Shown piece after piece: positions 30,266 through 51,454 of a DNA stretch of 64,000 nucleotides (position 1 is the stretch's first letter; each line of letters opens with the position of its first letter). This DNA is from Acidimicrobiia bacterium (GTDB lineage: Bacteria; Actinomycetota; Acidimicrobiia; Spongiisociales; ZC4RG35): NCBI GenBank assembly GCA_036525795.1, contig DATCZS010000123.1, positions 10,717 through 74,716 of the forward strand, in the 5' to 3' direction. The notes below the pieces were generated by a model, which saw only the letters and a list, made by a program, of their open reading frames with translations, was not told the DNA's origin and made no database searches. A program made the position numbers and the translations under genes.

Positions 30266-32584
30266 TCAGAGCGCCATCCCCGCCTCCCGCAGCGCCCGCC
30301 ACACCCGCTCGGCGGTGAAGGGGGTCTCGGTCAGCCACACTCCGGTTGCGTCGTGGACGGCGTTGGCGATGGTGGGAATCGGGGCGTTGATGCCGATCTC
30401 GGAAATCGACTTCGCCCCCATCGGGCCGGTCGGCTCGAACGACTCGACGAGGACCACCCGCAGCGGGGGCATGTCGACGGTGCTGGGGATCTTGTACCGG
30501 GCGAAATCGGGCGTTCGGCACCGGCCGCTGTCGGTGAACACCATCTCCTCCATCAGGGCATAGCCGATCCCGTTGGCGATCGCCCCTTCCACCTGACCCT
30601 CGGCCAGGCGGGGGTTCACCGCCGTCCCGCAGTCGACCGCCGCCACGAAGTCGGCGATCTCCAGCCTGCCGGTGCGCAGGTCCACCCCCACCTCGGCGAA
30701 GCTCGCCAGGAACGGCGGCGGCGACAGTTCGGGCAGGAACGACGCCATCGCCCCGATCTGGCGCTGGTCCTCGCCGTACAGGCTGCGCAGCGCCACCTCC
30801 GAGAGGGTGACGCTCTCCCCCTCGGGGATCCCCACCCGCTCGTCGACCAGCTCGAGGTCTGCGGGATCGGCCTCCAGCATCGCCGCGGCCGCCTCCCTGA
30901 TCTGGACGGCGACCTGGCGCGCCGCCCGCTCGACCGCCATCCCCGAGACGTAGGTCGTCGACGAGGCGTATGCCCCGGTGTCGAACGGCGTCAGGTCGGT
31001 GTCGGATGACAGCACCACGATCTTCTCCAGCGGCACCCCCAGGACCTCGGCGGCGATCTGGGCCAGGATCGTGTCCGAACCGGTCCCGAGATCGGTGGCA
31101 CCGACCGCAAGGTTGAAGGAGCCGTCGTCGTTCATCTTGAGGTTCGCCGACCCCATGTCGATCATCGGGATCCCCGACCCCTGCATGTGGATCGACATCC
31201 CGACCCCGTACACGACGTCGCCCTCCCGCCGCCTGCTCCCCCGCTTCGCCGACCAGCCGATGTGATCGGCCCCGACGCGGATGCACTCGTCGAGAACGCA
31301 GGAGGTGATGGTCTGATCGACGCCTTCCCGTCCTTCCCCGAGCGCCCGGAACATGGGCGAGGTCTCGCCGCTGCGCACGTGGTTGATCCGCCGCAGCTCC
31401 AGGGCGTCCATCCCGATCGCTTCGGCCAGGCGGTCGATCGCCGTCTCGAGCGGGAAGTACCCCTGGGTGGCCCCGTACCCGCGATAAGCGCCGCCCACCG
31501 GGAGGTTGGTGTACACGGCCTCGCCCCAGAACCGGACGTGGGCCGCCTTGTTGTACAGGGGGAGCGTCTTCGAACCGACGTTGGACAGAACGGTCAGGGC
31601 GTGGGTGCCGTAGGCGCCGGTGTTGGACAGCACGTCCATGCCGATGGCGTTGATCTTCCCGTCGCGCGTGGCTCCGAGCCGGACCCTGATCCGCATGGGA
31701 TGGCGCGTCCGCGACGACACGAACTCCTCTTCCCGGTCGAACTCGAGCACGGCGGGACGTCCCGTGCGATGGGTCACCATCGCCACCAGGTCCTCGATGA
31801 GGATCTCCTGTTTCACTCCGAAGCCCCCGCCGATGCGCGGCTTCACGACCCGAATCCGGTGGACCGGGACCTCGAGAAGGCCGGCGACGATCCGCCTCAC
31901 GTGGAAGGGAACCTGGGTCGACGACACGATGACGAGCCGCTCCTCGGTGTCGAGGTAGCTCGTGGCCACGTGGGTCTCGAGCGGAGCGTGCTGGCCGTAG
32001 TGGGTCTCGCAGGTGACGTCCACCACCGCGTCCGCCTCGGCCAGGCCGGTTTCGATGTCTCCCGAAGTGGCCACCACGTGTGACGCACAGTTCCGCTCGG
32101 CGGCCCACACGTCCAATGCGTCGGTCTCGTCGTGGATCACCGGGGCGCCGTCGGCGACGGCCTGGTCGATGGACAGCACCGGCTCGAGCATCTCGTACTC
32201 GACTTCGATCGCCTGACAGGCTTCGCGTGCCGTCTCCGGCGAGTCGGCGGCCACCGCCGCCACCCGGTCGCCTACGAAGCGCACCTTGGTGTCGAACATG
32301 CGGGCGTCATAAGGAGACGGCTCGGGATACCCCTGTCCGGCGGTGGTGTATCGCCTGGAGGGAGTGTTCATGTGCGTGAGCACCAGGGCCACACCCTGCA
32401 TCTCCTCGGCCGCCGACACGTCGATCGACCTGATGCGGGCGTGGGCGTGGGGGCTCCTCAGCAGCGCAACGTGGAGGAGGCCCTGGCGTTCGGTCATGTC
32501 TGCGACGAACACCGGCCGGCCGGTGGCCAGTGCCCGGCCGTCCACCCGGCGCTCGCTCTGGCCGACGACCGCGTACTTCCCCAT
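30266..32584 (-). CDS. Xanthine dehydrogenase-family molybdopterin-binding large subunit (set 1)
   Basis: GGGFGVK and AYRGYGATQ motifs. 772 aa starting MGKYAVVGQ, whose ATG overlaps the stop of the 2Fe-2S subunit gene. Confidence 0.85.
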   Translation of the reverse strand: MGKYAVVGQSERRVDGRALATGRPVFVADMTERQGLLHVALLRSPHAHARIRSIDVSAAEEMQGVALVLTHMNTPSRRYTTAGQGYPEPSPYDARMFDTKVRFVGDRVAAVAADSPETAREACQAIEVEYEMLEPVLSIDQAVADGAPVIHDETDALDVWAAERNCASHVVATSGDIETGLAEADAVVDVTCETHYGQHAPLETHVATSYLDTEERLVIVSSTQVPFHVRRIVAGLLEVPVHRIRVVKPRIGGGFGVKQEILIEDLVAMVTHRTGRPAVLEFDREEEFVSSRTRHPMRIRVRLGATRDGKINAIGMDVLSNTGAYGTHALTVLSNVGSKTLPLYNKAAHVRFWGEAVYTNLPVGGAYRGYGATQGYFPLETAIDRLAEAIGMDALELRRINHVRSGETSPMFRALGEGREGVDQTITSCVLDECIRVGADHIGWSAKRGSRRREGDVVYGVGMSIHMQGSGIPMIDMGSANLKMNDDGSFNLAVGATDLGTGSDTILAQIAAEVLGVPLEKIVVLSSDTDLTPFDTGAYASSTTYVSGMAVERAARQVAVQIREAAAAMLEADPADLELVDERVGIPEGESVTLSEVALRSLYGEDQRQIGAMASFLPELSPPPFLASFAEVGVDLRTGRLEIADFVAAVDCGTAVNPRLAEGQVEGAIANGIGYALMEEMVFTDSGRCRTPDFARYKIPSTVDMPPLRVVLVESFEPTGPMGAKSISEIGINAPIPTIANAVHDATGVWLTETPFTAERVWRALREAGMAL

Positions 32585-33054
32585 CAGGCCCCACCCCCTT
32601 CGATGCGTTCGGCGGCGAGAAGGACGCCCTCGACGATCTTGACGTAGCCGGTGCAGCGGCACAGGTTCCCGGCCAGAGCCTCTCGCACCTCGCGTTCGGT
32701 TGGATGTGGAACGCGATCGAGCAGCTCGGCCGCCGTCAGGATGATCCCGGGGGTGCAGAACCCGCATTGGATCCCGCCGGTGTCGAGCAGCGCCGACTGC
32801 AGCGGATGCAGCCCTTCGTCGCCCGCCAGTGATTCGACCGTCGTCACCCGGCGACCATCGACCTGGGCGGCGAACAGCAAACACGAGGTCACGGCCCGGC
32901 CGTCGACCAGCACCGCACACGTCCCGCAGTCGCCGTGGGCACACCCGTTCTTGACCCCGGCGAAGCCGCGCTCGCGCAACATCTCCATGAGCGTGGCACC
33001 CGGATGCACCTCGGCCTCGATGGCCAGTCCGTTGACCGTCAGCGAGATCCTCAT
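32584..33054 (-). CDS. Xanthine dehydrogenase-family (2Fe-2S)-binding small subunit (set 1)
   Basis: Plant-type ferredoxin Cys cluster CAHGDCGTC plus QCGFCTPG and CRCTGY. Confidence 0.88.
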   Translation of the reverse strand: MRISLTVNGLAIEAEVHPGATLMEMLRERGFAGVKNGCAHGDCGTCAVLVDGRAVTSCLLFAAQVDGRRVTTVESLAGDEGLHPLQSALLDTGGIQCGFCTPGIILTAAELLDRVPHPTEREVREALAGNLCRCTGYVKIVEGVLLAAERIEGGGA

Positions 33055-33896
33055 GCGCCACCTCCCAGCCGGTCCCTTGCCACCCTCAGGCACCGGTCGA
33101 CGAGGGTGACCGCCAGATGCGATCGGTATTCGGCCGAGGCGGTCCAGCTGGAATGGGTGGGGAGGTCGCCCGCCAGCCTGGCGGCATCCGCAATCGCCTC
33201 GTCGTCGAGGGTCGATCCGACCAGCCTGCCGGCGGCCTCGGCCAGCACCCGGGCGACACCGGGGCCGGCCCCGACGGCGAGCCTCGCCTCGTCGACGATG
33301 CCGTCGACGGCCCGCACGCGACAGGCCGTGTTGGCGAGGGCGTGGTCGAAACCCGAGCGCGAGAACCGCAGAAATGCGGCCACCTCCTCCGCCGGCGGAG
33401 GGAGGAACACGGCGGTGACGACGTGAAGCGTGTCGTGCACCGAGTCGTGGTAGTAGGAGTCGAGCGGCAGCCGGCGGGTCTGCCCGTCGAAGACCTCGAT
33501 CTCGGCATCGAGGGCCAGCAGGACGGGAACCACATCCGACAGGTACCCCCGGGCGAGATGACCGCCGATGGTTGCGGCGTTGCGCAACAGCGGCGATCCG
33601 ACCTGCACGAGCATCTCGGGGATCACCCCCGAGGCCATCCGGCGGAGCTCGGGGTGCTCGAGCATTCCGGTGAGCGTCGCCATCGCCCCGATCCGGATCG
33701 TTCCGTCGCTCTCGACGTCGATCCCCTCGATACCCAGATGCGACAGGTCCACCAGCACTCGCACCTCGGCCGGACAGTGGATCGTCAGGTCGGTGCCCCC
33801 TCCCACGAGCCTCACCTGAGGGCCTTCCTGCAGGAGATGCCACACCTGCATGATCCGGTCCGGGCGGTGGAAGGCGCGGATCTGACTCACCGGCAT
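33051..33896 (-). CDS. Xanthine dehydrogenase-family FAD-binding subunit (set 1)
   Basis: CoxM/XdhB-like FAD-binding domain (LVGGGTDL, AATIGG), 281 aa. Confidence 0.8.
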   Translation of the reverse strand: MPVSQIRAFHRPDRIMQVWHLLQEGPQVRLVGGGTDLTIHCPAEVRVLVDLSHLGIEGIDVESDGTIRIGAMATLTGMLEHPELRRMASGVIPEMLVQVGSPLLRNAATIGGHLARGYLSDVVPVLLALDAEIEVFDGQTRRLPLDSYYHDSVHDTLHVVTAVFLPPPAEEVAAFLRFSRSGFDHALANTACRVRAVDGIVDEARLAVGAGPGVARVLAEAAGRLVGSTLDDEAIADAARLAGDLPTHSSWTASAEYRSHLAVTLVDRCLRVARDRLGGGA

Positions 33897-33899
33897 CGT

Positions 33900-35387
33900 T
33901 CATCCTCCTCGCACACGCCGATTGAACTCGCCGATCAGATGGTCGATCTCGTCGACCTGACCCTGCACGGTGGTCCAGTAGTCGGGGTCGTGCCACTGGG
34001 CGTCGAGCTCGGCCGTCTCGCGCCCCTGCTGCTCGATCCACGTGAAGTACTTGAGATCGTGGATGCGTCTGCGGTCCCAGTGATCGAGCTCCCGCATGTG
34101 ATCCGTGCTCAGACCCATCACCCAACGACCATATGCCACCTCGGCATCGGTGGCGGTGAATTCCCCGCGGTCGGCGTTCATCTCGGCGAGCCTGCTCCGG
34201 TACATGTCGATGGAATCCGTCGCCATCGTCAGGACCACGTCGGTCGGGCCGAGCTCGAACCACCGTGCGAACTTGATGGCGCCGATCAGGTTGGCCACCG
34301 ACGAGATCCCCAGCTCGGGCAGCCGGGCGATCACCTCGTCGCCGACACCGTGACTCGCGAGGCACTCGACGCCGGCAGGCTCGTTGAACAGCCGGACCAG
34401 CGACATCGGACCTTCGTCGTCGATGGCGATCACGACGTCGGTGTTCTTGACGTTGTGGATCCAGGGCACGTGCTTGTCGCCGATGCCCTCGATCCGATGG
34501 TCGCCGTGTCCCGAATAGAGGAGGGTCGGACACTGGAGGGCCTCACCGGCGGCGATCAGCGATCCCGGCCAGCGTTGCTTGAGCCGGTCACCCGATCCGA
34601 TCGTGCCGGCCGAACCGGTCGTCAGCACCACCCCCCGGTAGCGGTCACCGGGGCGCATCGCCTCCTCGACCACCTCGATCATGGCGCTCCCCGTGACCTC
34701 GTAGTGCCACAGGTAGTTCCCCAGTTCGTCGAACTGGTTGAAGATCACGACGTCCTCCCCGGAGACCCGCATCCGGTTGCACTCGTCGAAGATCTCCTTC
34801 ACGTTGGACTCGGTGCCCGGGGTGGTCACGATCTCTCCCGCCACCGACTCGAGCCAGTCGAATCGCTCCCGGCTCATGCCTTCGGGAAGAATCGCGACGG
34901 ACTCGCACGCCAGCAGATTCGCGTCGTACGCCCCGCCCCGGCAGTAGTTGCCGGTCGACGGCCACACCGACTTCTGACTCGTCGGATCGAACTGCCCCGT
35001 CACGAGCCGGGGAACCAGACAGCCGAAGGCGGCGCCCACCTTGTGGGCGCCCGTGGGGAACCACTTGCCGACCAGGGTGATGATCCTCGCATCCACCCCG
35101 GTGAGAGAGGGGGGAAACTCGATGGTGTTGACCGGCCCGAACGCGCCGCCGGTGGCGACCGGCTCGTTGTGCCAGTTGATGCGGAACAGGTTGAGCGGAT
35201 CCAGATCCCACAAGCCCAGTCCACCCAGCCTCCCGGTCACCTCTGGCGGAATCGACGCGGGGTCGCGCATCTGCTCGAACGTCGGGACCACGATGTCGCG
35301 TTCGCCTGCCCGCCGGACGGCACGGTCGAGTGCGTCGGGTCTGATCGTCAGGTCGATCCCCCGGTTCCATCGGGCGGCGGCGGTCAT
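33900..35387 (-). CDS. PLP-dependent fold-type II enzyme (Trp-synthase-beta-like, GAHK lysine motif), specificity unknown
   Basis: 495 aa. PTGAHKVGAAF resembles the TrpB HTGAHK PLP-lysine region, and a Gly-rich GSAGTIGSG loop is present. Its ATG overlaps the stop of the upstream threonine-synthase-like gene. Confidence 0.6.
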   Translation of the reverse strand: MTAAARWNRGIDLTIRPDALDRAVRRAGERDIVVPTFEQMRDPASIPPEVTGRLGGLGLWDLDPLNLFRINWHNEPVATGGAFGPVNTIEFPPSLTGVDARIITLVGKWFPTGAHKVGAAFGCLVPRLVTGQFDPTSQKSVWPSTGNYCRGGAYDANLLACESVAILPEGMSRERFDWLESVAGEIVTTPGTESNVKEIFDECNRMRVSGEDVVIFNQFDELGNYLWHYEVTGSAMIEVVEEAMRPGDRYRGVVLTTGSAGTIGSGDRLKQRWPGSLIAAGEALQCPTLLYSGHGDHRIEGIGDKHVPWIHNVKNTDVVIAIDDEGPMSLVRLFNEPAGVECLASHGVGDEVIARLPELGISSVANLIGAIKFARWFELGPTDVVLTMATDSIDMYRSRLAEMNADRGEFTATDAEVAYGRWVMGLSTDHMRELDHWDRRRIHDLKYFTWIEQQGRETAELDAQWHDPDYWTTVQGQVDEIDHLIGEFNRRVRGG

Positions 35388-36655
35388 GGGTGTCCTCCTG
35401 TCGTCGTTCCGAACACCGCCTCCACCGCGTCGAGGCGGGGACTCACGTGGTGGGCGACGTCTCCGGCGGCCTCCACTGCCCGGATCGCGGCGGGAACGTC
35501 CTTGAGTCCGGTGCCGGTGCTGACCAGCACGATGCGGTCGCGATTCAACACGAGCCCCATTGCGGCCGCCCGCACCAGCCCGGCGTATGCCGCCGCCGCG
35601 GCCGGCTCGGCGAACACCCCCGAGGCCCTGGCCAGGAGCGGGATGGAGGCAAGGATCTCCTCGTCGGTGACCGTGACGAACGCCCCGTCGGTGTCGTGCA
35701 CCGCCCGCATCGCCTTGAGCCGGTCCCTCGGCAGCCCGGCCGAGATCGAGTCGGCGACCGTGTGGGCGGCGATCGCCGGTTTGGTGAGGACGTCCTCTCC
35801 CCGGCGCCACGCCTCGGCGAGGAACGCCGAGCCCTCTGCCTGCACGCCGATCAGCCGGGGGACGTGGGTGATCCATCCCAGGGCGACGAGGTCGCGAAAG
35901 CCCTTGTGCAGGCCGCCGATGATGCACCCGTCCCCCACGGAGACGAAGACCACGTCGGGTGCCTGCCAGCCGAGTTGCTCGACGATCTCCACCGCCGCCG
36001 TCTTCTTGCCCTCCGACATGTACGGGTTGAAGCCGGTCGTGCGGTTGTACCACCCGAAGCGGTCCGCCGCCTGGAGGCACAGCTCCACCGCGTCGTCGTA
36101 CGAGCCGTCCACGAGCAGCACGGTCGAGCCGTATGCCAGCAGTTGCGCCACCTTGGCCTGGGGGGCGTCCGCCGGAACGAAGATCACGTTGGGTTGCTTC
36201 ACGGAGGCGCACACCCCGGCGAGGGCGGCTGCGGCGTTCCCGGTGGAAGCGGTCGTGACGACCGACGCGCCCCGTTCGGTGGCCTTCACCACCGCCACGG
36301 CACTCGCCCGGTCCTTGAGCGACCCCGTGGGCTGGACTCCCTCGTCCTTGACCCACACGTCCCGGAGACCGAGGCTCGCTGCGAGCCTCGGCGTCTCGTA
36401 CAGGGGAGTCCACCCGACCCTGAGCGGAGGCACCGCAGAGGCCTGTCCGATGGGCAGCAGAGCCCGGTACCGCCACATCGACTCGATCCCCGATTGCGCC
36501 ACTCCGCCGCGGCTGAAGCCTGACTCGATGCGGTCGTAGTCGTAGGCCACGTCGAGGGTCCCGTCTGCGCCGTGGTCGGGACACACGTAGTCCACTTCAT
36601 CTGCGGCGTAGCGCGATCCGCAGATCATGCAGTCGAGCCCCAGCACGTGGTTCAT
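35384..36655 (-). CDS. Threonine synthase-like PLP enzyme with an N-terminal Zn-ribbon
   Basis: CxxC...C N-terminus (CMICGSRYAADEVDYVCPDHG) and a SLKDR PLP-lysine motif. 423 aa after trimming to MNHVLG. Confidence 0.7.
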   Translation of the reverse strand: MNHVLGLDCMICGSRYAADEVDYVCPDHGADGTLDVAYDYDRIESGFSRGGVAQSGIESMWRYRALLPIGQASAVPPLRVGWTPLYETPRLAASLGLRDVWVKDEGVQPTGSLKDRASAVAVVKATERGASVVTTASTGNAAAALAGVCASVKQPNVIFVPADAPQAKVAQLLAYGSTVLLVDGSYDDAVELCLQAADRFGWYNRTTGFNPYMSEGKKTAAVEIVEQLGWQAPDVVFVSVGDGCIIGGLHKGFRDLVALGWITHVPRLIGVQAEGSAFLAEAWRRGEDVLTKPAIAAHTVADSISAGLPRDRLKAMRAVHDTDGAFVTVTDEEILASIPLLARASGVFAEPAAAAAYAGLVRAAAMGLVLNRDRIVLVSTGTGLKDVPAAIRAVEAAGDVAHHVSPRLDAVEAVFGTTTGGHP

Positions 36656-36674
36656 GCCGGCTCCTTCGCCCGTC

Positions 36675-37622
36675 TCATGGCGTGATCCGCGTCCCGGTGT
36701 GGCCGGCCAGGGCTCTGTCGATCTGATCGGGACTGGTGATGATGGCCTGAGACCCCCCGCCTTCCAGGAAGTCGACGACCGCCTCGATCTTGGGGGCCAT
36801 GCTTCCCGGACGGAAGTGCCGCCCTTCCGCCAGGCGACGCTTCGCCTCGTCGAGGGTGAGGTGGTCGACCCACCGCTGATCGGGGGTCCCGAAGTCGAGC
36901 GCAACGCGTTCCACCGAGGTCGAGATCAACAGGAGGTCTGCGGCGATCTCCCTGGCGAGCAAGGCAGAGGCCCGGTCTTTGTCGATCACGGCCGGAACTC
37001 CCCGCAGGTTGCCTGCCCCGTCGGACACGACCGGAATGCCGCCGCCCCCACAGGCGATCACCACGAACCCGCCGTCGAGAAGGAACCGGATCGCCTCGAT
37101 CTCCACGATTCTCATCGGCAGCGGAGATGCGACCACGCGCCGCCATCCCCGCCCCGCGTCCTCCACCACCTCCCAGCCGTCCATCCGGGCCCTCGTCTCG
37201 GCCTCTTGGGCCGTCAGGAACGAGCCGATCGGCTTGGACGGCAGACGGAAGGCCGGATCGTCCGGGTCGACCTCCACCTGGGTGACGACGGTGACGGCCT
37301 CCTTGGCGATGCCAAGACGCCGAAAGTCACCGACCAGGTTCTGCTGAAGCAGATAGCCGATCGCCCCTTGTGTGTCCGCCCCGCACACGTCGAGCGGCAC
37401 CTCGTGCAGCTCGTTGCGCGCCAGTTCCGAGCGGCGCAGGATGAATCCGATCTGGGGCCCGTTGCCGTGGGTGATCACCACCTCACATCCGTGGGCAACG
37501 AGATTGGCGATGTGATGATCCGTCTCGGCCGCGGCCAGGTACTGGTCCTCGACCGTCTGGTGCTCCGGATCGGTGATGAGGCTGTTGCCTCCGATCGCCA
37601 CCACCACCCGCTGATGTTCCAT
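36675..37622 (-). CDS. arcC: Carbamate kinase
   Basis: MEHQRVVVAIGGN N-terminus and an amino-acid-kinase fold of 315 aa with GGGGIPVV. Confidence 0.85.
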   Translation of the reverse strand: MEHQRVVVAIGGNSLITDPEHQTVEDQYLAAAETDHHIANLVAHGCEVVITHGNGPQIGFILRRSELARNELHEVPLDVCGADTQGAIGYLLQQNLVGDFRRLGIAKEAVTVVTQVEVDPDDPAFRLPSKPIGSFLTAQEAETRARMDGWEVVEDAGRGWRRVVASPLPMRIVEIEAIRFLLDGGFVVIACGGGGIPVVSDGAGNLRGVPAVIDKDRASALLAREIAADLLLISTSVERVALDFGTPDQRWVDHLTLDEAKRRLAEGRHFRPGSMAPKIEAVVDFLEGGGSQAIITSPDQIDRALAGHTGTRITP

Positions 37623-37681
37623 CTCCTCGCTCGCTCCCTCCTCTTCTCCGACACCCGACACCGCCCGCCTCCGGAGCGGGC

Positions 37682-38656: not shown

Positions 38657-38664
38657 CGCTCACC

Positions 38665-39621: not shown

Positions 39622-39766
39622 GATCCTCCCTCAACTGTCTCCGCGAACAAGGGTTTGCCCGCCGAAGCGGGCCATCAACACAGGCTGCGCAATCGCTGGC
39701 CCACCGGGTAGAGACGAACGGCCACAACCCCTGGGCCCCTGACCTCTCTGCGGTCGCCGGCCGAAT

Positions 39767-43304: not shown

Positions 43305-43319
43305 GCGAAAGGATCCGCA

Positions 43320-44528: not shown

Positions 44529-44532
44529 ACCG

Positions 44533-45477
44533 GTGCCGATTCCCCTCCTGTTGCTCCTCGCCCTGCCTGCGTCCGGCAAGTCGGAGCTCCGCCGCTATCT
44601 CGACCTGCTGGACGAGCACGACCGTCTCGAGCTGGGGCTGGGACCCACCGTGCAGCTCGACGACTACCCGTACGTGGCGCTGATGCGGGCGATCTCCCGG
44701 AGATTGCTGGCCGGCGGGCGCCACCCGGTGTTCTTCGCCTCGGACGATCTGCCGTTCGCCGACCCGCGGGATTGGCTCACGCTGATCCACCTGCTCAACG
44801 AGGACCACCAATCGGTCGTCCAGGGAGCGACACTGCCAGACGATCCGGGCCGGTGGATCCTCGACCGTCTGGACAGGGCCCGGACCCTCGCCGGGGCTCC
44901 GGCCCTGACCGATGGGCTCCCCGGAGACGCAACGGCTGTCCTGGTCGACGCGTGCAGGTCGCCAGGATCCGACATCGCCGCCGCCCTCGTCAGCCGGCGA
45001 TGCACCGAGGGTTCGACGATCGTCGTGGAATTCGCCCGGGGTGGCCCCCGGGGCTCGGCGATGCCGCTCCCCCATCCCCACGGGTACGTTCACTCGCTCG
45101 CCGCGCTCTCGCCGGCGATCCTCGACCACGCCGCGGCCCTCTACATCCGGGTTACCCCCGAACAGAGCCGCGCGAAGAACCTGGAGCGGGCGCGCCCGGA
45201 CGGCGAAGGATCGATTCTCCACCACGGCGTACCCGAGACCGTCATGGACCGCGACTACGGCACCGACGACTTCGTCTGGCTGCTCGAGACGTCCGATCGG
45301 CGCGGCACGATCCGCATCGAGAGGGACGAACGCGCCTTTCGCCTGCCCGCCGCAGTGTTCGACAACCGGGAGGACCTCACGACCTTCCTGCGCGACGACC
45401 CTGAGACCTGGCCTGCGGAAATGGTGACAGCACTGCATGCCAGGCTGCGGGCGGCACTCGCAGCCCTTCGGCCGTGA
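44533..45477 (+). CDS. Hypothetical P-loop protein (Walker A-like ALPASGKS)
   Basis: The N-terminus LLLALPASGKSELRRYL resembles kinase P-loops. 314 aa, no family assigned. Confidence 0.4.
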   Translation: MPIPLLLLLALPASGKSELRRYLDLLDEHDRLELGLGPTVQLDDYPYVALMRAISRRLLAGGRHPVFFASDDLPFADPRDWLTLIHLLNEDHQSVVQGATLPDDPGRWILDRLDRARTLAGAPALTDGLPGDATAVLVDACRSPGSDIAAALVSRRCTEGSTIVVEFARGGPRGSAMPLPHPHGYVHSLAALSPAILDHAAALYIRVTPEQSRAKNLERARPDGEGSILHHGVPETVMDRDYGTDDFVWLLETSDRRGTIRIERDERAFRLPAAVFDNREDLTTFLRDDPETWPAEMVTALHARLRAALAALRP

Positions 45478-45492
45478 CGGGGCGACGGGCGA

Positions 45493-46866
45493 TCAACCGT
45501 CGACCAGCGAGCGGGATGCGGCGTTGTGCAGGACCGTCAGCCGTTCGGGGTCGATCGTCTCCACCTGTCCGGCGGTGACCACCGCCCGCCCGTGCACCCA
45601 GGTCTCGTCGACCTGAACAGGGGCGCACAGCATCAGCGCCGCCACGGGATCATGGAGCGCACCGGCGAATTCCACCCGGTCGAGCTTCACGGCGAAGAAA
45701 TCGGCCGCCTTCCCCACCTCGAGCGAGCCGATATCGGGACGGCCCAGCACCGCCGCCCCTCCCCGGGTGGCGATCTCCAGTGCCTCGCGTGCCGGCATCA
45801 CCACTCCCGGTCCCCGGTCAGGCGCGGGCGCCGCCGCCAGCCGGGCGAGCAGCATCGCCTGCCGTGCCTCGCCCAGCAGGTGGCTGCCGTCGTTGGAGGC
45901 AGAACCGTCGACACCCAGACCGGTTCGCACGCCGGCGTCTCTGTACGCCCGCACCGGGGCGATGCCGGAAGAAAGGCGCATGTTGGACGAGGGGCAGTGC
46001 GCCACCCCGGTCCCGCTGGACGCCATCCGTCGGATGCCGCCGGCATCGACCCACACGCCGTGGGCGAACCACACCTCGTCGCCCAGCCAGCCCACCGACT
46101 CGGCGTAGTCGAGAGGCCGCATGCCGAACGACTCGAGGCAGAACCGCTCCTCGTCGATCGTCTCGGCGAGGTGGGTGTGCATCGTCACCCCGAAGGATCT
46201 GGCCACTTCGGCGGACGCGGCCATCACCTCGCGGGTCACCGAGAACGGCGAACAGGGAGCCACGACGATGCGGGTCATCGCCCCCGGTGCAGGATCGTGG
46301 AACTCGGTGATCACCCGAACGGTGTCGGCGAGGATGGCGTCTGCCTCCTCCACGACCGAGTCCGGCGGAAGACCGCCGTCGCTCTCCCCCAGGCTCATCG
46401 ACCCCCGGGATGCGTGAAGACGCAGACCCACCTGGCGGGCGGCCTCGATCTGGTCATCCAGCCGCGACCCGTTGGGAAACAGATACAGGTGGTCGGACGC
46501 GGTGGTGCAGCCGGACCGGGCCAGCTCGACCAGACCGAGCTGGGTCGACAGACGGATGTGATCGGGCGTCATCCGCGCCCAGATGGGATAGAGCGCCTTC
46601 AACCACTCGAACAGGCCGGCGTCCTGGGCGGCGGGAACCGCCCTCGTGAGCGTCTGGTAGAGGTGATGGTGGGTGTTGACGAGCCCGGGAGCCGCAACGT
46701 GGCCGGAGAGGTCGAGGACTTCGTCGGCAGAGGCGGGGAGCTCCGAAGTCGGTCCGACCGCTTCGATCCAGCCGTCACGGGCGAACAGCCCTCCGTCGAC
46801 GATCTCCCGACGATCGGCGTCCATCGTGACGAGGACGGCGGCATTCTTCACCAGCAGCGTCGACAT
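45493..46866 (-). CDS. Amidohydrolase, COG0402 type (guanine/8-oxoguanine deaminase/SsnA-like)
   Basis: HHHLYQT metal-binding motif near the N-terminus and an overall 457-aa amidohydrolase layout (MSTLLVKNAAVLVTMD...). Confidence 0.7.
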   Translation of the reverse strand: MSTLLVKNAAVLVTMDADRREIVDGGLFARDGWIEAVGPTSELPASADEVLDLSGHVAAPGLVNTHHHLYQTLTRAVPAAQDAGLFEWLKALYPIWARMTPDHIRLSTQLGLVELARSGCTTASDHLYLFPNGSRLDDQIEAARQVGLRLHASRGSMSLGESDGGLPPDSVVEEADAILADTVRVITEFHDPAPGAMTRIVVAPCSPFSVTREVMAASAEVARSFGVTMHTHLAETIDEERFCLESFGMRPLDYAESVGWLGDEVWFAHGVWVDAGGIRRMASSGTGVAHCPSSNMRLSSGIAPVRAYRDAGVRTGLGVDGSASNDGSHLLGEARQAMLLARLAAAPAPDRGPGVVMPAREALEIATRGGAAVLGRPDIGSLEVGKAADFFAVKLDRVEFAGALHDPVAALMLCAPVQVDETWVHGRAVVTAGQVETIDPERLTVLHNAASRSLVDG

Positions 46867-46968
46867 GGAGCCACGGTATGGCCCGGCTGTCCGGGCGGGG
46901 AGGGACCGACGGCCCTTCCGGCCGAAGCCCTCGTGCGAGACAGGGTCGACCGGGGACGGCGGGCGCAG

Positions 46969-47451
46969 CTACAGCTTGTACCCGAACTGGCGGAGCAGGC
47001 CCTTCCGGGCCACGACATCCTCTTCGGTCTCGACCCCGAGCGGGGACCCGCCGTCGACCACCCCGATGATCCCCCTGCCCTGGTCGGTCTCGGCCACCAG
47101 CACCTCCACAGGATTGGCGGTGGCGCAGAAGATCCGACACACCTCCGGCACGGCTTTCACCGCGTTGAGCACGGACACCGGGAACCCGTTGCGAAGGAAG
47201 ACGATGAAGCTGTGGCCGGATCCGACGGCTACGGCATTGCGGACCGCCAGTTCGACGAGGTCGTCGGCGTTGCCCGAACGGCGCACCAGGCGCGGGCCGG
47301 ACGCCTCGCAGAAGGCGAGCCCGAATTCGAGCGAGCCGGACGATTGGGCGAGCACCTCGTGCAGGTCCTCCACCGTCTTGATGAAGTGGCTCTGCCCCAG
47401 GATCAGGTTGAGCTCTTCGGGGTTCTCGATCGGGACGGATTGGATCTCCAT
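46969..47451 (-). CDS. Adenosine-specific-kinase-like small protein (PF04008-like), tentative
   Basis: 160 aa. GQSHFIKTVEDLHE matches my recollection of this family. The family call is uncertain; the ORF itself is clean. Confidence 0.45.
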   Translation of the reverse strand: MEIQSVPIENPEELNLILGQSHFIKTVEDLHEVLAQSSGSLEFGLAFCEASGPRLVRRSGNADDLVELAVRNAVAVGSGHSFIVFLRNGFPVSVLNAVKAVPEVCRIFCATANPVEVLVAETDQGRGIIGVVDGGSPLGVETEEDVVARKGLLRQFGYKL

Positions 47452-47548
47452 GGCCCAAACGTAGTCCCTGCCGGTACCCGGCCATGGGTCATGGGTCCCT
47501 GGTCATCTGACCACCGGCCCTGCCGCGTGTGCGGGACTGCGCATAGGG

Positions 47549-48607
47549 TTGAGCCGAGAGACACAGAGCGGAGGTGTGTGCGTGGAGTCGTTTGCACGCG
47601 GGCTGCCGAAGGCCGAGTTGCACGTTCACATCGAGGGGACCCTCGAGCCGGAGATGGTGTTCGATCTGGCACGACGGAACCGGATGGAGCTCCGGTACGA
47701 CTCGATCGAGGCACTGCGGGCGGCATACGAGTTCACCGACCTCCAATCGTTCCTCGACGTCTACTACGAGGCGGCCGGCGTGCTGTTCGACACCGAGGAC
47801 TTCCACGACATGACGTGGGCGTATCTTCGGCGGGCGGCGGCAGACGGGGTCGCTCGCGCCGAGGTCTTCTTCGACCCCCAGACGCACACGGAGCGAGGGG
47901 TGCCGTTCGCCACGGTGGTCGAGGGGATCGGGTCGGCGCTCGACCGGGCCGAACTCGAGCTGGGCATGTCGACCGGCCTGATCCTGTGTTTCCTCCGCCA
48001 CCTTCCCGCCGAGAAGGCGATGGAGACCCTCCAACAGGCGGAGCCGCACCTGGACCGCCTCCTGGGGGTTGGACTCGACTCGTCCGAAGTGGGGTTCCCA
48101 CCCGAGTTGTTCGTCGATGCGTTCGGCCGGGCCCGTTCGCTCGGGCTCCGGGTGGTGGCCCACGCCGGGGAAGAGGGTCCTCCGGAGTACGTGTGGCAGG
48201 CCCTCGACCTCCTCGGCGCCGAACGGATCGAACACGGCGTCAGGAGCATGGAGGATCCGGCGCTCGTCGAACGGCTGGCACGGGACCGAGTTCCGCTCAC
48301 CGTATGTCCGCTCTCGAACGTGCGGCTGAAGGTGGTCGACCGCGCCGAGGACCACCCGCTGCGCAAGATGCTCGAGGCCGGGCTCAACGTCTCGATCAAC
48401 TCGGATGATCCCGCCTACTTCGGTGGCTACATCGGCGACGCCTACCTCCAAACCGCCCGGGCGCTGGATCTGTCGGAGGGACAACTGGCGACGGTCGCAC
48501 GCAACTCGCTCGAGGCCTGTTTCGTCTCCGACGCCGAACGGGCCGCCCTGACTGCGCGCCTCGACGACTACCTGGGCGCCCGCCCGGCGGGTGCCGAAGG
48601 GGAGTAG
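47549..48607 (+). CDS. add: Adenosine deaminase
   Basis: ELHVHIEG and SINSDDPA motifs. The true start may be a few codons downstream. Confidence 0.85.
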   Translation: MSRETQSGGVCVESFARGLPKAELHVHIEGTLEPEMVFDLARRNRMELRYDSIEALRAAYEFTDLQSFLDVYYEAAGVLFDTEDFHDMTWAYLRRAAADGVARAEVFFDPQTHTERGVPFATVVEGIGSALDRAELELGMSTGLILCFLRHLPAEKAMETLQQAEPHLDRLLGVGLDSSEVGFPPELFVDAFGRARSLGLRVVAHAGEEGPPEYVWQALDLLGAERIEHGVRSMEDPALVERLARDRVPLTVCPLSNVRLKVVDRAEDHPLRKMLEAGLNVSINSDDPAYFGGYIGDAYLQTARALDLSEGQLATVARNSLEACFVSDAERAALTARLDDYLGARPAGAEGE

Positions 48608-48609
48608 CG

Positions 48610-49635
48610 ATGTCTGCGATCACTCCGGGACTGGTGTGCGCCCATCATCACCTCTACTCGACGCTGGCCAGAGGCATGCCGCCTCCGCCGCGCACACCGC
48701 ATGGCTTCGGCGAGATCCTCGAACTCGTCTGGTGGAGGCTCGATACGGCCCTCGACCTCGAGATGATCAGATGGTCGGCGATGCTCGGGGCGCTGGAGGC
48801 TCTCGAACACGGGACCACCGCCATCGTCGACCACCACGAGTCCCCCAACGCCATCGAAGGGAGCCTGGAGGTGATTGCGGACGCCTGCGCCGAGGTCGGT
48901 GTGCGGGTCGTGTGCGCCTACGGAGTCACCGATCGTCACGGGCCAAACGGGGCACTGCGCGGACTCGAAGAGAACCGGCGGTTCATCGCAGGCGGAGGCC
49001 GGGGCCTGGTGGGGGTTCACGCCGCCTTCACCTGCACCGATGACACGCTGGTCGCAGCCGCCGAGATGGCGGCCGGGCTCGGAGTCGGGGTGCACATCCA
49101 TGTGTGCGAGGGCGAAATCGATCGAGAGGCCCCCGACCGCCTCCGGCGGCTCACCACAGACGATTGGGTGCTCGCCCACGGTGTCCACCTCTCCGAGGAG
49201 TCCGGACTGGCCGGGACCGTCGTGCACAACCCTCGATCGAACCTGAACAACGCCGTGGGCTACGCCCACCCTTCGCGATTCGCCAACCCCGTCGCCCTCG
49301 GATCGGACGGGATCGGCGCGGCGATGCTCGAGGAGTTCGGACTGGCCTACGTCCTGGCGCGCAGCCACGACATCACCACCGAACCCTCCACCGCCTGGCA
49401 GTGGCTCGAGAACGGCTGGCTCCTCGTCCCTGAGGCCCGGTCAGACGTCGTCGAATGGGGCTATGCGCCGATGGACCCCTGGCACGTGGCGTTCACCCCG
49501 GGGATCAGACCGCTGCGGATCACCGTCGACGAAGAAGTGGTGTTCGAGAACGGGCGTCCGACCCGCGTCGACGCATCCGAGATCAGGGCGAAGGCCGCCG
49601 AACAGGCCAGACGGCTGCATGCCCGACTGCTGTGA
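48610..49635 (+). CDS. Amidohydrolase family protein (short SsnA/chlorohydrolase-like, N-terminally truncated form)
   Basis: AHHHLYSTL metal-binding motif, 341 aa. Starts 3 nt after add. Confidence 0.6.
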   Translation: MSAITPGLVCAHHHLYSTLARGMPPPPRTPHGFGEILELVWWRLDTALDLEMIRWSAMLGALEALEHGTTAIVDHHESPNAIEGSLEVIADACAEVGVRVVCAYGVTDRHGPNGALRGLEENRRFIAGGGRGLVGVHAAFTCTDDTLVAAAEMAAGLGVGVHIHVCEGEIDREAPDRLRRLTTDDWVLAHGVHLSEESGLAGTVVHNPRSNLNNAVGYAHPSRFANPVALGSDGIGAAMLEEFGLAYVLARSHDITTEPSTAWQWLENGWLLVPEARSDVVEWGYAPMDPWHVAFTPGIRPLRITVDEEVVFENGRPTRVDASEIRAKAAEQARRLHARLL

Positions 49636-49645
49636 GGAGATCACG

Positions 49646-51454
49646 ATGAACCCGATGCATCGCGGCCCGCTGTCCCCCTATCCGCTCGAGGTCCTGCTCG
49701 GGCGGGTGGCGCATGAATGGGGGACCAGGCATCGGATCTTCGACCTCCCCACCGGCCGCTTCTACCACGCCGACCCGGCCCACGACCTCTCGATCCACCT
49801 CGGTGCTCGCAGCGCTTCCACCCCCCTGGGTCCGGCCGCAGGGCCCCACACCCAGCTCGCCCAGAACTTCGTGCTTGGGTGGCTGGCAGGCGCCCGGGTG
49901 TTCGAGGCCAAGACCGTGCAGGTCCTCGACGAGCTCGACATCGAACGACCGTGCATCGACATGGAGGCCGAAGGCTACAACGTCGAATGGAGCCAGGAGC
50001 TCACCCTCGAACAGTCGCTCCTGGAGTACGTCAAGGCCTGGATGATGCTCGATATCCTGCGCCGCTGGCCGGAGCTGTGGCCGATCGTGGGCCGCGTGCC
50101 GGGACCACACGTCTTCGACATGTCGGTGGGCTACGACCTCGCAGGGATCCGTTCGCCGCGGGTGGCCGAATTCATCAGGGGCATGCTGGATGCATCGGCG
50201 GTGATCGACGGGCTGCGATCGCACATCCCTGAGCCCTTCCAGCTCTTCCACGACCACTCCTTCGAGACCCAGCTCGTCACGGCCGCCACCGTCTCGACGT
50301 TCCACGGTTGCCCCCCTGACGAGATCGAGGCGATCGCCCGTCACCTGATGGACGACTACGGCCTTGACGTCGTCGTCAAGCTCAACCCGACCCTGCTCGG
50401 ATTCGACGACACGGCCCGCATCCTCCACGACAGGCTCGGATACGCCGGCGTCGAGCTCGACCCCGGCGCCTTCGCGGCCGATCTCCAGTTCGATCGCGCC
50501 ATCGCGATGATCCCCTCCCTCGCCGCCCACGCCGCCGAGCGGGGGCTCCGCTTCGGAATCAAGCTCACCAACACGCTCGTGGTGGCGAACCATCGCGGCA
50601 GGCTGCCAGGCGACCGGATGTACCTTTCCGGTCCGCCTCTCCACGTCATCGCCATGACGCTGCTCGACCGTCTCGTGGATGCCCTGCCCGGCGTCTTCGA
50701 CCTCGGCGAAGGCGACGGCGGCGTGGACGTGTCGTGGTCGGCCGGAGTCGACGCCGACAACTTCGCCGCGACCGCCGGTCTGGGACTCGGCCCGATCACT
50801 GCCTGCTCCCAGCTGCTCAAGCCGGGCGGCTACGGCCACCTGTCGGCGATGCTGAGGAAGCTCAACGAGGAGATGACGGCCGCCGCCATCCCCGACCTCG
50901 CCGGCTGGGTCGGCCATCAGCACGCCAGTGCCCGGCTGGCAGGTCATCGCGACGCCGTCGCCGCGTACGTCGCCTCCCTGGCCACCGCCGAAGGGGCGGC
51001 TCGATACGGCTCGACACGGGTGGCCCGCAGGCTCCGCCAGGTCGACCACGCCCTGGAGCTGTGGGGATGCGTGGCATGCAACGTGTGCGTGACGGTGTGC
51101 CCGAACGATGCCGTGCTCCACATCCGCACCCCCGAGACTCTGGGCGGCGTGTCAGACGCCAACTGGCAATACGTCGTGCTGGCCGAACTGTGCAACGAAT
51201 GCGGAAACTGCACGACCTTCTGCCCCGAAGACGGCGAACCCTGGCTGGTCAAGCCGAGGCTGTTCCTCGACGAGGGCCGCTTTGCGGCCGACCCGGACGG
51301 GAGACCGGCGTTCCTGGTGGAGGCCGGTGCCGGAGGCTTCGCGGTGACGGCCTCCGACGGGTTCGATTCCCACGCCGGCTCCCTGACCGCCCTCCTCAAC
51401 GACGATGAGGGATTGCCGTTCCGCCCGGAGACGCTGGAGGCGATCCTGGCCTGA
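49646..51454 (+). CDS. Dihydroorotate/dihydropyrimidine-dehydrogenase-family TIM-barrel flavoenzyme with C-terminal 2x[4Fe-4S] ferredoxin domain (PreA-like), about 100-aa N-terminal extension
   Basis: VVVKLNPTL and GIKLTNT DHOD-family motifs. Two CxxCxxCxxxCP clusters (CVACNVCVTVCP, CNECGNCTTFCP). A GAGGAG Shine-Dalgarno sits 6 nt before the ATG. Confidence 0.65.
   Translation: MNPMHRGPLSPYPLEVLLGRVAHEWGTRHRIFDLPTGRFYHADPAHDLSIHLGARSASTPLGPAAGPHTQLAQNFVLGWLAGARVFEAKTVQVLDELDIERPCIDMEAEGYNVEWSQELTLEQSLLEYVKAWMMLDILRRWPELWPIVGRVPGPHVFDMSVGYDLAGIRSPRVAEFIRGMLDASAVIDGLRSHIPEPFQLFHDHSFETQLVTAATVSTFHGCPPDEIEAIARHLMDDYGLDVVVKLNPTLLGFDDTARILHDRLGYAGVELDPGAFAADLQFDRAIAMIPSLAAHAAERGLRFGIKLTNTLVVANHRGRLPGDRMYLSGPPLHVIAMTLLDRLVDALPGVFDLGEGDGGVDVSWSAGVDADNFAATAGLGLGPITACSQLLKPGGYGHLSAMLRKLNEEMTAAAIPDLAGWVGHQHASARLAGHRDAVAAYVASLATAEGAARYGSTRVARRLRQVDHALELWGCVACNVCVTVCPNDAVLHIRTPETLGGVSDANWQYVVLAELCNECGNCTTFCPEDGEPWLVKPRLFLDEGRFAADPDGRPAFLVEAGAGGFAVTASDGFDSHAGSLTALLNDDEGLPFRPETLEAILA

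Follow-up and report, generated by a model that had tools for sequence, protein, structure and literature searches.

A gene block from an Acidimicrobiia genome probably encodes a variant of the reductive uric-acid pathway with exchanged enzymes

A block of 19 genes at positions 30266-51454 of a contig from an uncultured Acidimicrobiia bacterium (DATCZS010000123.1; positions refer to the window, the whole 64-kb stretch that was analysed) probably encodes, as read from sequence, a variant of the reductive 2,8-dioxopurine pathway of uric-acid degradation in which three enzymes have been swapped. Of the eight E. coli enzymes characterised for the pathway, five have homologues here: XdhD (41% identity), YgfK (39-40% over its domains), SsnA (33%), YgeW (35%) and YqeA (48%). 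An earlier note on this DNA had proposed an uncharacterised variant of the E. coli ygeW-ygfT, or anaerobic urate, locus, and our analysis supports that proposal. The note had also called the pathway still poorly resolved, which is out of date: it was solved in 2025 (10.1101/2025.04.24.650524; 10.1101/2025.05.19.654654). After XdhD-YgfM (DOPDH) has reduced urate to 2,8-dioxopurine and YgfK has reduced the latter in turn, the hydantoin ring is opened by HyuA, which leaves 2,3-diureidopropionate. This molecule loses one of its ureido groups through phosphorolysis by YgeW, the resulting carbamoyl phosphate serving YqeA for ATP synthesis, and the second through hydrolysis by YgeY; the remaining 2,3-diaminopropionate is converted by YgeX to pyruvate and ammonia (10.1101/2025.04.24.650524; 10.1101/2025.05.19.654654). 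The pathway chemistry used here was also drawn from PMC12990295.

At about 69% G+C, the open reading frame (ORF) lists of the window are crowded with shadow ORFs. Genes were called from third-position GC (GC3 frame analysis), and start codons were compared with ribosome-binding sites. The block comprises four transcription units. A minus-strand unit of eight genes, with gaps of at most 60 nt or overlaps of 1-4 nt, encodes two carbamoyltransferases, CT_ATCl (resembling aspartate carbamoyltransferase, ATCase) and CT_OTCl (resembling YgeW), carbamate kinase, two pyridoxal-phosphate (PLP) enzymes, ThrCl and PLP495, and the FAD, 2Fe-2S and Mo subunits of a xanthine dehydrogenase (XDH)-type enzyme, X1. 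Divergent from it, a plus-strand unit encodes a second trimer, X2, an acyl-CoA dehydrogenase and a 314-aa protein without a family. A second minus-strand unit carries an 8-oxoguanine deaminase gene and a PF04008 gene, and a second plus-strand unit carries genes for adenosine deaminase, an SsnA-like protein (SsnAl) and a YgfK-like protein. Independent public gene calls on contigs with identical proteins reproduce this gene set and differ only slightly, in the start codons of the X2 FAD subunit, carbamate kinase and adenosine deaminase. The features of the block are as follows.

30266-32584, minus strand: Mo-binding subunit of X1, 772 aa, XdhD-like, candidate urate/2,8-dioxopurine oxidoreductase (identity to XdhD, Glu606 loop)
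32584-33054, minus strand: 2Fe-2S subunit of X1, 156 aa (separate frame inside an over-extended 931-aa ORF; 45% identity to E. coli XdhC)
33051-33896, minus strand: FAD-binding subunit of X1, 281 aa, XdhB/YgfM-like (Pfam FAD_binding_5 and CO_deh_flav_C)
33900-35387, minus strand: PLP495, PLP enzyme of CysK/CBS fold, 495 aa (weak PALP match, AlphaFold2 (AF2) fold)
35384-36655, minus strand: ThrCl, threonine-synthase-like PLP enzyme with an N-terminal Zn-ribbon-like Cys motif (generic ThrC models)
36675-37622, minus strand: carbamate kinase, YqeA/ArcC type (NCBIfam TIGR00746)
37682-38656, minus strand: CT_OTCl, compact YgeW-like carbamoyltransferase, 324 aa (best E. coli match YgeW; motifs)
38665-39621, minus strand: CT_ATCl, ATCase-like carbamoyltransferase, 318 aa (STRTR, HPTQ and Arg167 kept)
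39622-39766, no strand: divergent intergenic (promoter) region between two operons (gene arrangement)
39767-40615, plus strand: FAD-binding subunit of X2 (Pfam FAD_binding_5 and CO_deh_flav_C)
40612-41082, plus strand: 2Fe-2S subunit of X2, 156 aa (Fer2_2 domain in public gene calls)
41079-43304, plus strand: Mo-binding subunit of X2, 741 aa, PucD-like (TIGR03196 pucD)
43320-44528, plus strand: acyl-CoA dehydrogenase family protein (Pfam)
44533-45477, plus strand: 314-aa protein with a Walker-A-like PASGKS motif (no family)
45493-46866, minus strand: 8-oxoguanine deaminase family amidohydrolase, COG0402 (NF006055)
46969-47451, minus strand: PF04008 ('adenosine specific kinase') protein, 160 aa (Pfam E-value 1e-72)
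47549-48607, plus strand: adenosine deaminase (NF006850)
48610-49635, plus strand: SsnAl, short SsnA-like amidohydrolase, 341 aa (33% identity to E. coli SsnA)
49646-51454, plus strand: short YgfK, 602 aa, FMN barrel and 2x[4Fe-4S] domain (39-40% identity to the ends of YgfK)

The proteins were searched against Pfam and NCBIfam with model cut-offs and, for selected proteins, against the PDB. The E. coli reference locus was retrieved and its proteins compared with those of the window, and the window was searched with tblastn. Every gene class that the earlier note had listed was recovered at or near its reported place by gene calling and profile searches, including the two PLP fold-II enzymes (PALP family), the acyl-CoA dehydrogenase and the PASGKS protein inside the block. 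One gene, for the PF04008 protein at 46969-47451 on the minus strand, had been overlooked, and the actinobacterial host of the note belongs to the class Acidimicrobiia. Statements on function beyond family membership draw on homology, active-site residues and gene neighbourhoods, and are worded accordingly.

With CT_OTCl as anchor, one genome per species was scanned and the marker was found in 390 species-level genomes. The best 80 of these 390 relatives, whose CT_OTCl proteins are 76-89% identical, were used for mapping the window proteins; their hosts are Acidimicrobiia, other Actinomycetota, several classes of Chloroflexota and a few metagenome-assembled genomes labelled Acidobacteria or Proteobacteria. 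We found that CT_ATCl, CT_OTCl, carbamate kinase, ThrCl and PLP495 form a conserved core in most of the 80 genomes. When only the 32 loci with at least 8 kb on each side of CT_OTCl were considered, CT_ATCl was present in 28 and a YgeY homologue in the other 4, while carbamate kinase occurred in 26, ThrCl in 22, an XDH-family Mo subunit in 21, the YgfK-like gene in 11 and SsnAl in 10. Six loci (L011, L014, L015, L033, L056 and L061), and L025 as far as its contig reaches, have a compact divergon with X1 on one side and CT_ATCl, CT_OTCl, (carbamate kinase), ThrCl, PLP495, SsnAl and YgfK on the other; no hydantoinase gene was found in these compact divergons. The short SsnA-like gene is present on at least 554 metagenome contigs. 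Across 80 metagenome loci examined with SsnAl as anchor, 33 of 44 have the YgfK-like gene after SsnAl, 29 of 36 an XDH-family gene upstream of it, and 8 of 15 the carbamoyltransferase module nearby. The core genes are thus co-located in both genome and metagenome loci, the co-conservation on which the earlier note had made its proposal depend. PnrA-type purine-nucleoside ABC transporters are encoded in related clusters too, and Chloroflexota-like loci add a luciferase-like reductase of the F420 type.

The two carbamoyltransferases carry much of the argument. Among the three E. coli carbamoyltransferases compared, CT_OTCl matched YgeW (184 bits, 35% identity) ahead of ArgI (152) and PyrB (75), and its family retains 76-93% identity across several phyla. 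The alignment showed that the motifs NxQCD, SYxKPLSVPQ and KSW are common to CT_OTCl and YgeW; by search pattern they were matched in 71, 65 and 60 of 81 family members (the window protein and its 80 relatives), the remainder deviating from the exact pattern. CT_OTCl falls under the cut-off of the ornithine carbamoyltransferase (OTC) model TIGR00658 (251.8 against 280.85), and YAKSWGAM replaces the DVWVSMG of OTC, so that the ornithine-binding DxxxSMG loop is absent. These features, together with the YgeW motifs and best match, led us to reject an ordinary argF, a reassignment that the earlier note had regarded as fatal to its proposal. The label YgeW orthologue holds for the motifs but not for orthology: besides the modest identity, the YgeW-specific insertions DDGYKQGVLPQ and RTELLRANDHEGLKALEKQ were not found in CT_OTCl in the alignment, and the YgeW equivalog models (TIGR03316 and NF005538) gave 175-185 bits against cut-offs of 453-500. 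Judged by its residues, CT_OTCl is an enzyme predicted to work like YgeW but placed outside that equivalog family. The adjoining carbamate kinase, at 48% identity to E. coli YqeA, exceeds the TIGR00746 cut-off (369, cut-off 358).

In E. coli numbering, the aspartate-binding residues of ATCase are Lys84, Arg167, Arg229 and Gln231, of which Lys84 and Arg229 contact the aspartate beta-carboxylate. CT_ATCl, which is 36% identical to E. coli PyrB and scores just short of the cut-off of the ATCase model TIGR00670 (231.6 against 236.95), retains the carbamoyl-phosphate site (STRTR, Arg105, HPTQ) as well as Arg167, Gln231 and HxLPR. In place of Lys83-Lys84 it has D-F-Y (Asp-Phe-Tyr), and Arg229 is changed to Pro, followed by an 8-residue insertion; the losses of Lys84 and Arg229 are conserved in 59 of 62 sequences. 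A pocket of this kind, with the alpha-carboxylate ligand kept and the positively charged side-chain ligands replaced by Asp and aromatic residues, would fit 2,3-diaminopropionate or its 3-ureido derivative. These replacements, the near-miss on the model and the place of the gene in this operon argue against a housekeeping pyrB, an identity that the earlier note had raised as one that would count against it.

Furthermore, CT_ATCl and YgeY exchange with each other. In 62 CT_OTCl loci with enough upstream sequence, 55 had CT_ATCl and no YgeY, 7 had a YgeY homologue and no CT_ATCl, and none had both or neither. All seven homologues, which are 41-43% identical to E. coli YgeY, share the strand of CT_OTCl and precede it, five of them by about 100-140 bp, in the slot held by CT_ATCl elsewhere, and two by 0.7-1.3 kb. 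No YgeY was found in the 64-kb window. We propose that CT_ATCl is a phosphorolytic replacement of the amidase YgeY. From its pocket residues and the exchange with YgeY, we infer that the alpha (2-)ureido group is the one on which CT_ATCl acts by phosphorolysis; the two carbamoyltransferases would therefore jointly yield two carbamoyl phosphates, and so two ATP, per purine. Liu et al. (10.1101/2025.04.24.650524) placed YgeW at the 3-ureido group and YgeY at the 2-ureido group, and the order of ureido cleavage is highlighted as an open question in PMC12990295. If a scaffold for alpha-N-carbamoyl groups has indeed replaced YgeY, this favours the order of Liu et al.

The third exchange concerns YgeX, for which no counterpart was found in the 64-kb window; among the related loci, none of the 80 from genomes and 1 of the 80 from metagenomes had it. 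Its place is probably taken by the pair of ThrCl and PLP495. ThrCl retains the PLP lysine and the ASTGN loop and passes generic ThrC models, including TIGR00260, so annotation pipelines would label it threonine synthase. Where the four solved threonine synthase sequences read N-S-V-N-P-x-R, however, ThrCl and its 51 orthologues read T-G/A-x-N-P-x-M/T. ThrCl itself has T, G and M at the positions aligned to N154, S155 and R160 of the Thermus thermophilus enzyme, residues that, in that numbering, were reportedly described by Omi and colleagues in 2003 as the phosphate ligands of threonine synthase. As the phosphate triad is replaced in all 52 sequences, ThrCl is not expected to act on phosphohomoserine, and we rejected a true ThrC although the generic cut-offs are passed. 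The likeness of YgeX to ThrCl is weak and at the level of the fold (26% over about 190 residues; 68 bits against 276 on the diaminopropionate ammonia-lyase model NF006058).

PLP495 has a CysK/CBS core with helical N- and C-terminal extensions of about 100 residues each, and its AF2 model (pLDDT 81.6) matched CysK structures at a TMt of about 0.8. The motifs TGAHK (with the PLP lysine), PSTGNY (the Asn loop) and GSAGT are invariant in 44 orthologues. A weak match to the SbnA family was detected (TIGR03945, E-value 2.8e-6), and searches of the PDB by sequence, profile and fold returned only the generic CysK/CBS fold, with no functional lead. The start and stop codons of ThrCl and PLP495 overlap, and the pair, which is translationally coupled, is nearly always present in related loci from several phyla. 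Possible reasons for two enzymes are the handling of D and L forms, a lyase combined with beta-replacement to serine, or action on a mono-ureido intermediate.

A paralogous pair, PLP495-like (45-50% identity) and ThrC-like (26-30%), occurs with SsnA-like clusters in L121, L130, L139, L152 and L144, about 8-10 kb from the SsnA-like gene; in L144 the length is 507-542 aa. Some of these clusters use a luciferase-like reductase and a PnrA-type ABC transporter. Since such a pair accompanies SsnA-like clusters without a nearby carbamoyltransferase, it appears tied to the pathway. In some loci CT_OTCl is followed by a gene for a class I/II aminotransferase (11 loci), a D-2-hydroxyacid dehydrogenase (8) or a glutamate dehydrogenase (5), and a beta-ureidopropionase-like carbon-nitrogen hydrolase occurs in 10 loci (examples of these neighbours are L046 7035-8177, L063 2818-4164, L077 3321-4529 and L003 7641-8570). 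These genes hint at a serine, hydroxypyruvate or lactate branch, with alternative C3 fates and ureido hydrolases.

An alternative that keeps the reductive urate pathway is that CT_ATCl is an ordinary or redundant pyrB that was recruited, that an amidase elsewhere hydrolyses the second ureido group and that the PLP enzymes are unrelated ThrC and CysK paralogues. We regard this as unlikely. Its first element agrees with the score of CT_ATCl close to the TIGR00670 cut-off (231.6 against 236.95 bits) but not with the replacement of both Lys84 and Arg229 in 59 of 62 sequences, nor with the lack of pyr genes near CT_ATCl. The amidase could be an AtzE-like enzyme encoded 3 kb downstream of the cluster (54562-55956), yet CT_ATCl exchanges strictly, by position, with YgeY (55 to 7). 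As for the PLP enzymes, ThrCl does pass TIGR00260, but the phosphate-binding triad is absent in all 52 sequences, and ThrCl and PLP495 overlap in operons across several phyla.

The assignment of the urate-reducing step rests on X1. Its Mo subunit is 41% identical to E. coli XdhD (572 bits) and 34% identical to XdhA, and it carries the XdhD-specific loop LGEGREG, including the equivalent of Glu606, a residue singled out in XdhD by Li et al. (10.1101/2025.05.19.654654). The loop is retained in 12 of 16 X1 orthologues of at least 65% identity; in the other four the search pattern located no loop. X2 scored 726 bits on TIGR03196 pucD against a cut-off of 784, and X2-type genes usually adjoin the 8-oxoguanine deaminase gene in related loci; X2 is likely a true xanthine dehydrogenase, to judge from these matches. 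The two complete FAD/2Fe-2S/Mo trimers of the earlier note were confirmed, but its Mo-subunit ORFs of 931 and 854 aa were over-extended. Their arginine-rich N-termini are out-of-frame readings over separate 2Fe-2S genes, which excludes fused FeS-Mo proteins. The note had also asked whether these enzymes are carbon monoxide dehydrogenases. They are not: the large-subunit models of that family gave 206-370 bits against 673-726 for the XdhA and PucD models, so that XdhD/XdhA-like and PucD-like enzymes are indicated instead of aerobic CoxL. The Mo-subunit motif is AYRGYG / AMRGFG. The selenium-cofactor genes yqeB and yqeC were found neither in the 64-kb window nor in the 80 genome loci; they do accompany X1-like enzymes of 50-52% identity in a few metagenome loci.

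In most metagenome loci (including L117, L119, L139, L143, L144 and L159) the short SsnA-like gene is immediately preceded by a third XDH-family type, a 2Fe-2S and Mo pair that is absent from the window. It is 31-39% identical to X1 and X2, often lacks a FAD subunit and may be the urate reductase in those loci.

SsnAl and the YgfK-like gene lie next to each other, SsnAl directly upstream, and both encode short forms of their E. coli counterparts. SsnAl is 33% identical to residues 54-438 of E. coli SsnA, lacks about the first 55 SsnA residues and has the HxH motif; SsnA is its best-matching family, at 244 bits against a cut-off of 444. We rejected a frameshifted pseudogene, as 341 aa is the norm of the family: this length is common to at least 554 metagenome relatives at about 70-79% identity, and public gene calls agree. 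The short YgfK aligns with YgfK over residues 5-405 (39% identity) and 892-979 (40%), whereas the middle, residues 406-891, a GltD-like FAD/NAD(P)H module of 486 residues, is absent; TIGR03315 gave 425 against a cut-off of 835. Truncation was likewise rejected, because its best relatives, at least 120 clusters, all have 580-628 aa. An AF2 model (pLDDT 89.6) had the FMN barrels of dihydropyrimidine dehydrogenase (DPD) and dihydroorotate dehydrogenase (DHODH) as top folds, and Pfam DHO_dh was not detected in the protein. The earlier label PreA-like is therefore apt for the architecture, an FMN domain with a C-terminal 2x[4Fe-4S] domain, but not for the sequence, which derives from YgfK.

Having no NAD(P)H/FAD module, the short YgfK would need an external electron donor, either ferredoxin or a partner protein. 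The alpha subunit of a 2-oxoacid:acceptor (ferredoxin) oxidoreductase is encoded at 56097-59083 on the plus strand (TIGR03710, 661 bits), 4.6 kb downstream of the short YgfK, with the presumed beta subunit next to it. It is speculation that this enzyme oxidises pyruvate from the pathway and returns reduced ferredoxin to the short YgfK. An F420-dependent luciferase-like oxidoreductase with an extra N-terminal extension of about 150 residues is encoded at 17683-19119 on the minus strand (TIGR03560, 285 against 231 bits), 11 kb from the cluster; a luciferase-family F420 enzyme has been proposed as a substitute for YgfK in Chloroflexota (Li et al., 10.1101/2025.05.19.654654).

Hydantoinase is rare in this family of loci: HyuA was found in only 4 of 80 genome loci and 1 of 80 metagenome loci, with HyuA-like genes in L143, L053, L078 and L034. 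The hydantoin step thus exists in the lineage and is usually not encoded in the cluster. The 8-oxoguanine-deaminase-like amidohydrolase was considered as the missing ring-opener, a role that found no support: its score exceeds the 8-oxoguanine deaminase equivalog cut-off, and the compact operons lack it.

The remaining purine genes would feed the pathway. Both COG0402 amidohydrolases of the earlier note were identified, one as the SsnA-like protein and the other as 8-oxoguanine deaminase (NF006055, 673 against 532 bits), which occurs in 19 of the 80 related loci. Its adenosine deaminase likewise passed the model cut-off (NF006850, 514 against 419 bits), and this gene adjoins the SsnA-like gene also in L084 and L089.

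Taken together, these assignments suggest the following route. Adenosine deaminase, 8-oxoguanine deaminase and the PucD-like X2 would funnel purines to urate, which the XdhD-like X1 would reduce to 2,8-dioxopurine. The short YgfK, fed by ferredoxin or a partner protein, would dearomatise this product, and SsnAl would open the six-membered ring. Opening of the hydantoin might be encoded elsewhere or be done by a protein of the cluster. The YgeW-like carbamoyltransferase would then phosphorolyse one ureido group of 2,3-diureidopropionate and the ATCase-like one the other, most likely the alpha (2-) group, and carbamate kinase would turn both carbamoyl phosphates into ATP, two per purine instead of one. 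ThrCl and PLP495, in the place of YgeX, would convert 2,3-diaminopropionate to pyruvate and ammonia, or to serine.

Several observations weigh against this route. The roles of these proteins are predicted only, and SsnAl, YgfK, X1 and the YgeW-like carbamoyltransferase all fall under NCBIfam equivalog cut-offs. X1 in particular scores under both the XdhA and the XdhD cut-offs and carries Arg (AYRGYG) at the place of a Gln in E. coli XdhD (AYQGYG); it may therefore be an ordinary XDH, and its direction and regiochemistry remain an inference. HyuA was not found in the 64-kb window by tblastn, which leaves one step unaccounted for, and the short YgfK would depend on an external electron donor. 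Two PLP enzymes exceed what a simple replacement of YgeX requires. In many related loci the carbamoyltransferase module is not within 10 kb of SsnA or YgfK. Finally, all seven YgeY loci belong to Chloroflexota, and exclusivity with CT_ATCl tracks phylogeny; the 62 loci are therefore not 62 independent events, and independent exchanges are few.

A second alternative, which we think improbable, is that the module of carbamoyltransferases, carbamate kinase and PLP enzymes degrades another ureide (allantoate, ureidoglycine, N-carbamoyl-beta-amino acids or a citrulline-like compound) and is tied only loosely to the purine genes. About one third of the well-flanked loci have no XDH or SsnA gene within 8-10 kb, which would agree with such a loose tie; in at least seven loci, however, the module shares one operon with SsnAl and YgfK. 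Allantoate likewise bears two ureido groups, as is established chemistry, yet neither the window nor the loci showed a uricase, hydroxyisourate (HIU) hydrolase, allantoinase or allantoicase. The genes for aminotransferase, 2-hydroxyacid dehydrogenase and glutamate dehydrogenase after CT_OTCl in some loci also fit another substrate; on the other hand, the active-site motifs of CT_OTCl match YgeW, and in Chloroflexota the slot of CT_ATCl is filled by YgeY, a characterised enzyme of the urate pathway. Least credible of all is a biosynthetic module, in which carbamoyl phosphate would come from carbamate kinase and diaminopropionate, by SbnA-like chemistry, from the PLP enzymes, and the carbamoyltransferases would assemble ureido amino acids (albizziin, for example) destined for a secondary metabolite: the weak SbnA-family match of PLP495 (TIGR03945, E-value 2.8e-6) and the established thermodynamic preference of ATC/OTC-type reactions for carbamoylation are in its favour, but genes for nonribosomal peptide synthetases, siderophores and tailoring are absent, the genes that constantly accompany the module belong to catabolism (XDH, purine deaminases, SsnA, YgfK and nucleoside transporters), and the homologous YgeW-YqeA pair is experimentally catabolic and ATP-making (10.1101/2025.04.24.650524).

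The reductive urate variant can be set against known systems. It shares with the cluster of E. coli and Clostridium (xdhD-ygfM, ygfK, ssnA, hyuA, ygeW, yqeA, ygeY, ygeX) an XdhD-like Mo enzyme with a FAD subunit, a YgfK-type FMN/Fe-S reductase adjoining an SsnA-type amidohydrolase, a YgeW-type carbamoyltransferase adjoining carbamate kinase, and XDH and purine deaminase genes in one block. Unlike that cluster, the window lacks HyuA, YgeY, YgeX and YqeB/YqeC; an ATCase-like carbamoyltransferase stands in the place of YgeY and a PLP pair replaces the diaminopropionate (DAP) ammonia-lyase; YgfK is short, SsnAl is about 100 residues shorter, the YgeW-like carbamoyltransferase lacks the insertions, and the 2Fe-2S domain is a separate subunit instead of being fused to XdhD. 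The variant is carried by environmental Acidimicrobiia and Chloroflexota and not by anaerobes of the gut. In the variant of C. difficile, UacX replaces YgfK and UacY replaces YgeW/YqeA (Li et al., 10.1101/2025.05.19.654654). There too the reductase consists of FMN and Fe-S parts only, implying a donor other than NAD(P)H, and the ureido-cleaving step is evolutionarily interchangeable. However, that variant is fully hydrolytic, without carbamoyl phosphate, the opposite of a window with two carbamoyltransferases, and its reductase is of the PydA/UacX type, whereas that of the window derives from YgfK.

The arginine deiminase pathway (catabolic OTC and carbamate kinase) likewise gains substrate-level ATP from phosphorolysis of a ureido group, but in the window the substrate is different, there is no arginine deiminase, and two carbamoyltransferases would act in series on one molecule. 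CT_ATCl shares STRTR, HPTQ, Arg105, Arg167 and HxLPR with PyrB and differs from it in its catabolic context, in the replacement of Lys84 and Arg229 and in a score under the TIGR00670 cut-off. The Chloroflexota SsnA clusters with an F420 luciferase-like reductase (Li et al., 10.1101/2025.05.19.654654) have in common with the window the short SsnA-like family and PLP495-like/ThrC-like pairs (L139, L152), whereas in the window the SsnA-like gene is adjoined by a short YgfK instead.

Other genes in and around the block are less firmly connected to it. The acyl-CoA dehydrogenase, found in only 1 of 80 related loci, and the 314-aa PASGKS protein are accessory and not conserved with the cluster. The latter, which is co-transcribed with X2 and the acyl-CoA dehydrogenase, had no match in Pfam, NCBIfam or the PDB and was found in none of the 80 related loci. 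The PF04008 gene, between the genes for 8-oxoguanine deaminase and adenosine deaminase, is not conserved in related loci. All six solved relatives of its product were deposited as hypothetical proteins, and the family name 'adenosine specific kinase' is an untested label; its place among purine genes is suggestive. Two upstream features that the earlier note had mentioned were located as it described.

27514-29285, minus strand: RihA-like nucleoside hydrolase and ribokinase (NCBIfam matches under cut-offs)
24920-26119: MOFRL-family glycerate 2-kinase (family match)

The nucleoside hydrolase and ribokinase were not found in related loci; they are possible feeder steps, with their association unproven. 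Membership of glycerate kinase in the cluster is not supported: Sua5/YciO and methyltransferase genes intervene, and it was not found in related loci. On the other side, 3 kb downstream of the cluster and past a GNAT gene, two small unknown genes and a DUF3048 gene, lies the gene for the amidase-signature enzyme closest to AtzE (1-carboxybiuret hydrolase type; 54562-55956, plus strand; 341 against 461 bits), which may serve the pathway as a ureide amidase or have nothing to do with it. At 6817-8196 on the minus strand, one gene joins an alpha/beta-hydrolase domain to a catalytic domain of the adenylate/guanylate cyclase type. The cluster of the window contains no regulator gene, a search of Rfam at gathering thresholds revealed no riboswitch or other RNA element for it, and comparison of its two divergent intergenic regions by eye showed no evident shared operator. 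In related loci a regulator of the GntR/UTRA family is the commonest extra neighbour, lying between divergent CT_OTCl and CT_ATCl in 33 loci (L063 1011-1742 and 32 others); it is likely the pathway regulator in the 33 genomes that carry it.

SsnA-family clusters in Actinomycetota and Chloroflexota were noted in the similarity network of Li et al. (10.1101/2025.05.19.654654), whose Fig. 3 scored YgeW by PF00185 and YgeX by PF00291. Surveys by these two families would count the present clusters as canonical and miss the replaced enzymes. No account of this variant of the pathway, whether in Acidimicrobiia or linked to ThrC, turned up in full-text literature searches.

Collectively, we offer a broader picture as a tentative one, which we hold with less than even confidence: that environmental Acidimicrobiia, Chloroflexota and others use a re-engineered reductive purine pathway, in which two dedicated carbamoyltransferases, one of them a repurposed ATCase, harvest both ureido groups for two ATP per purine, a ThrC-like/CysK-like pair processes diaminopropionate, a ferredoxin-type short YgfK acts as reductase and the hydantoin step is done by a protein of the cluster or bypassed; that this pathway is probably independent of selenium; and that the order of ureido cleavage is thereby settled. 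A rebuilt version of the pathway would be common in Acidimicrobiia and Chloroflexota of soil, sediment and wastewater, with a higher predicted ATP yield per purine. It offers testable enzymes, namely a catabolic ATCase, a ThrC without its phosphate site and a CysK-fold enzyme with extensions, and the exchange of YgeY for an ATCase-like protein provides independent evidence on the order in which the ureido groups are removed. The variant could also supply selenium-independent and more compact parts for engineered urate-lowering probiotics.

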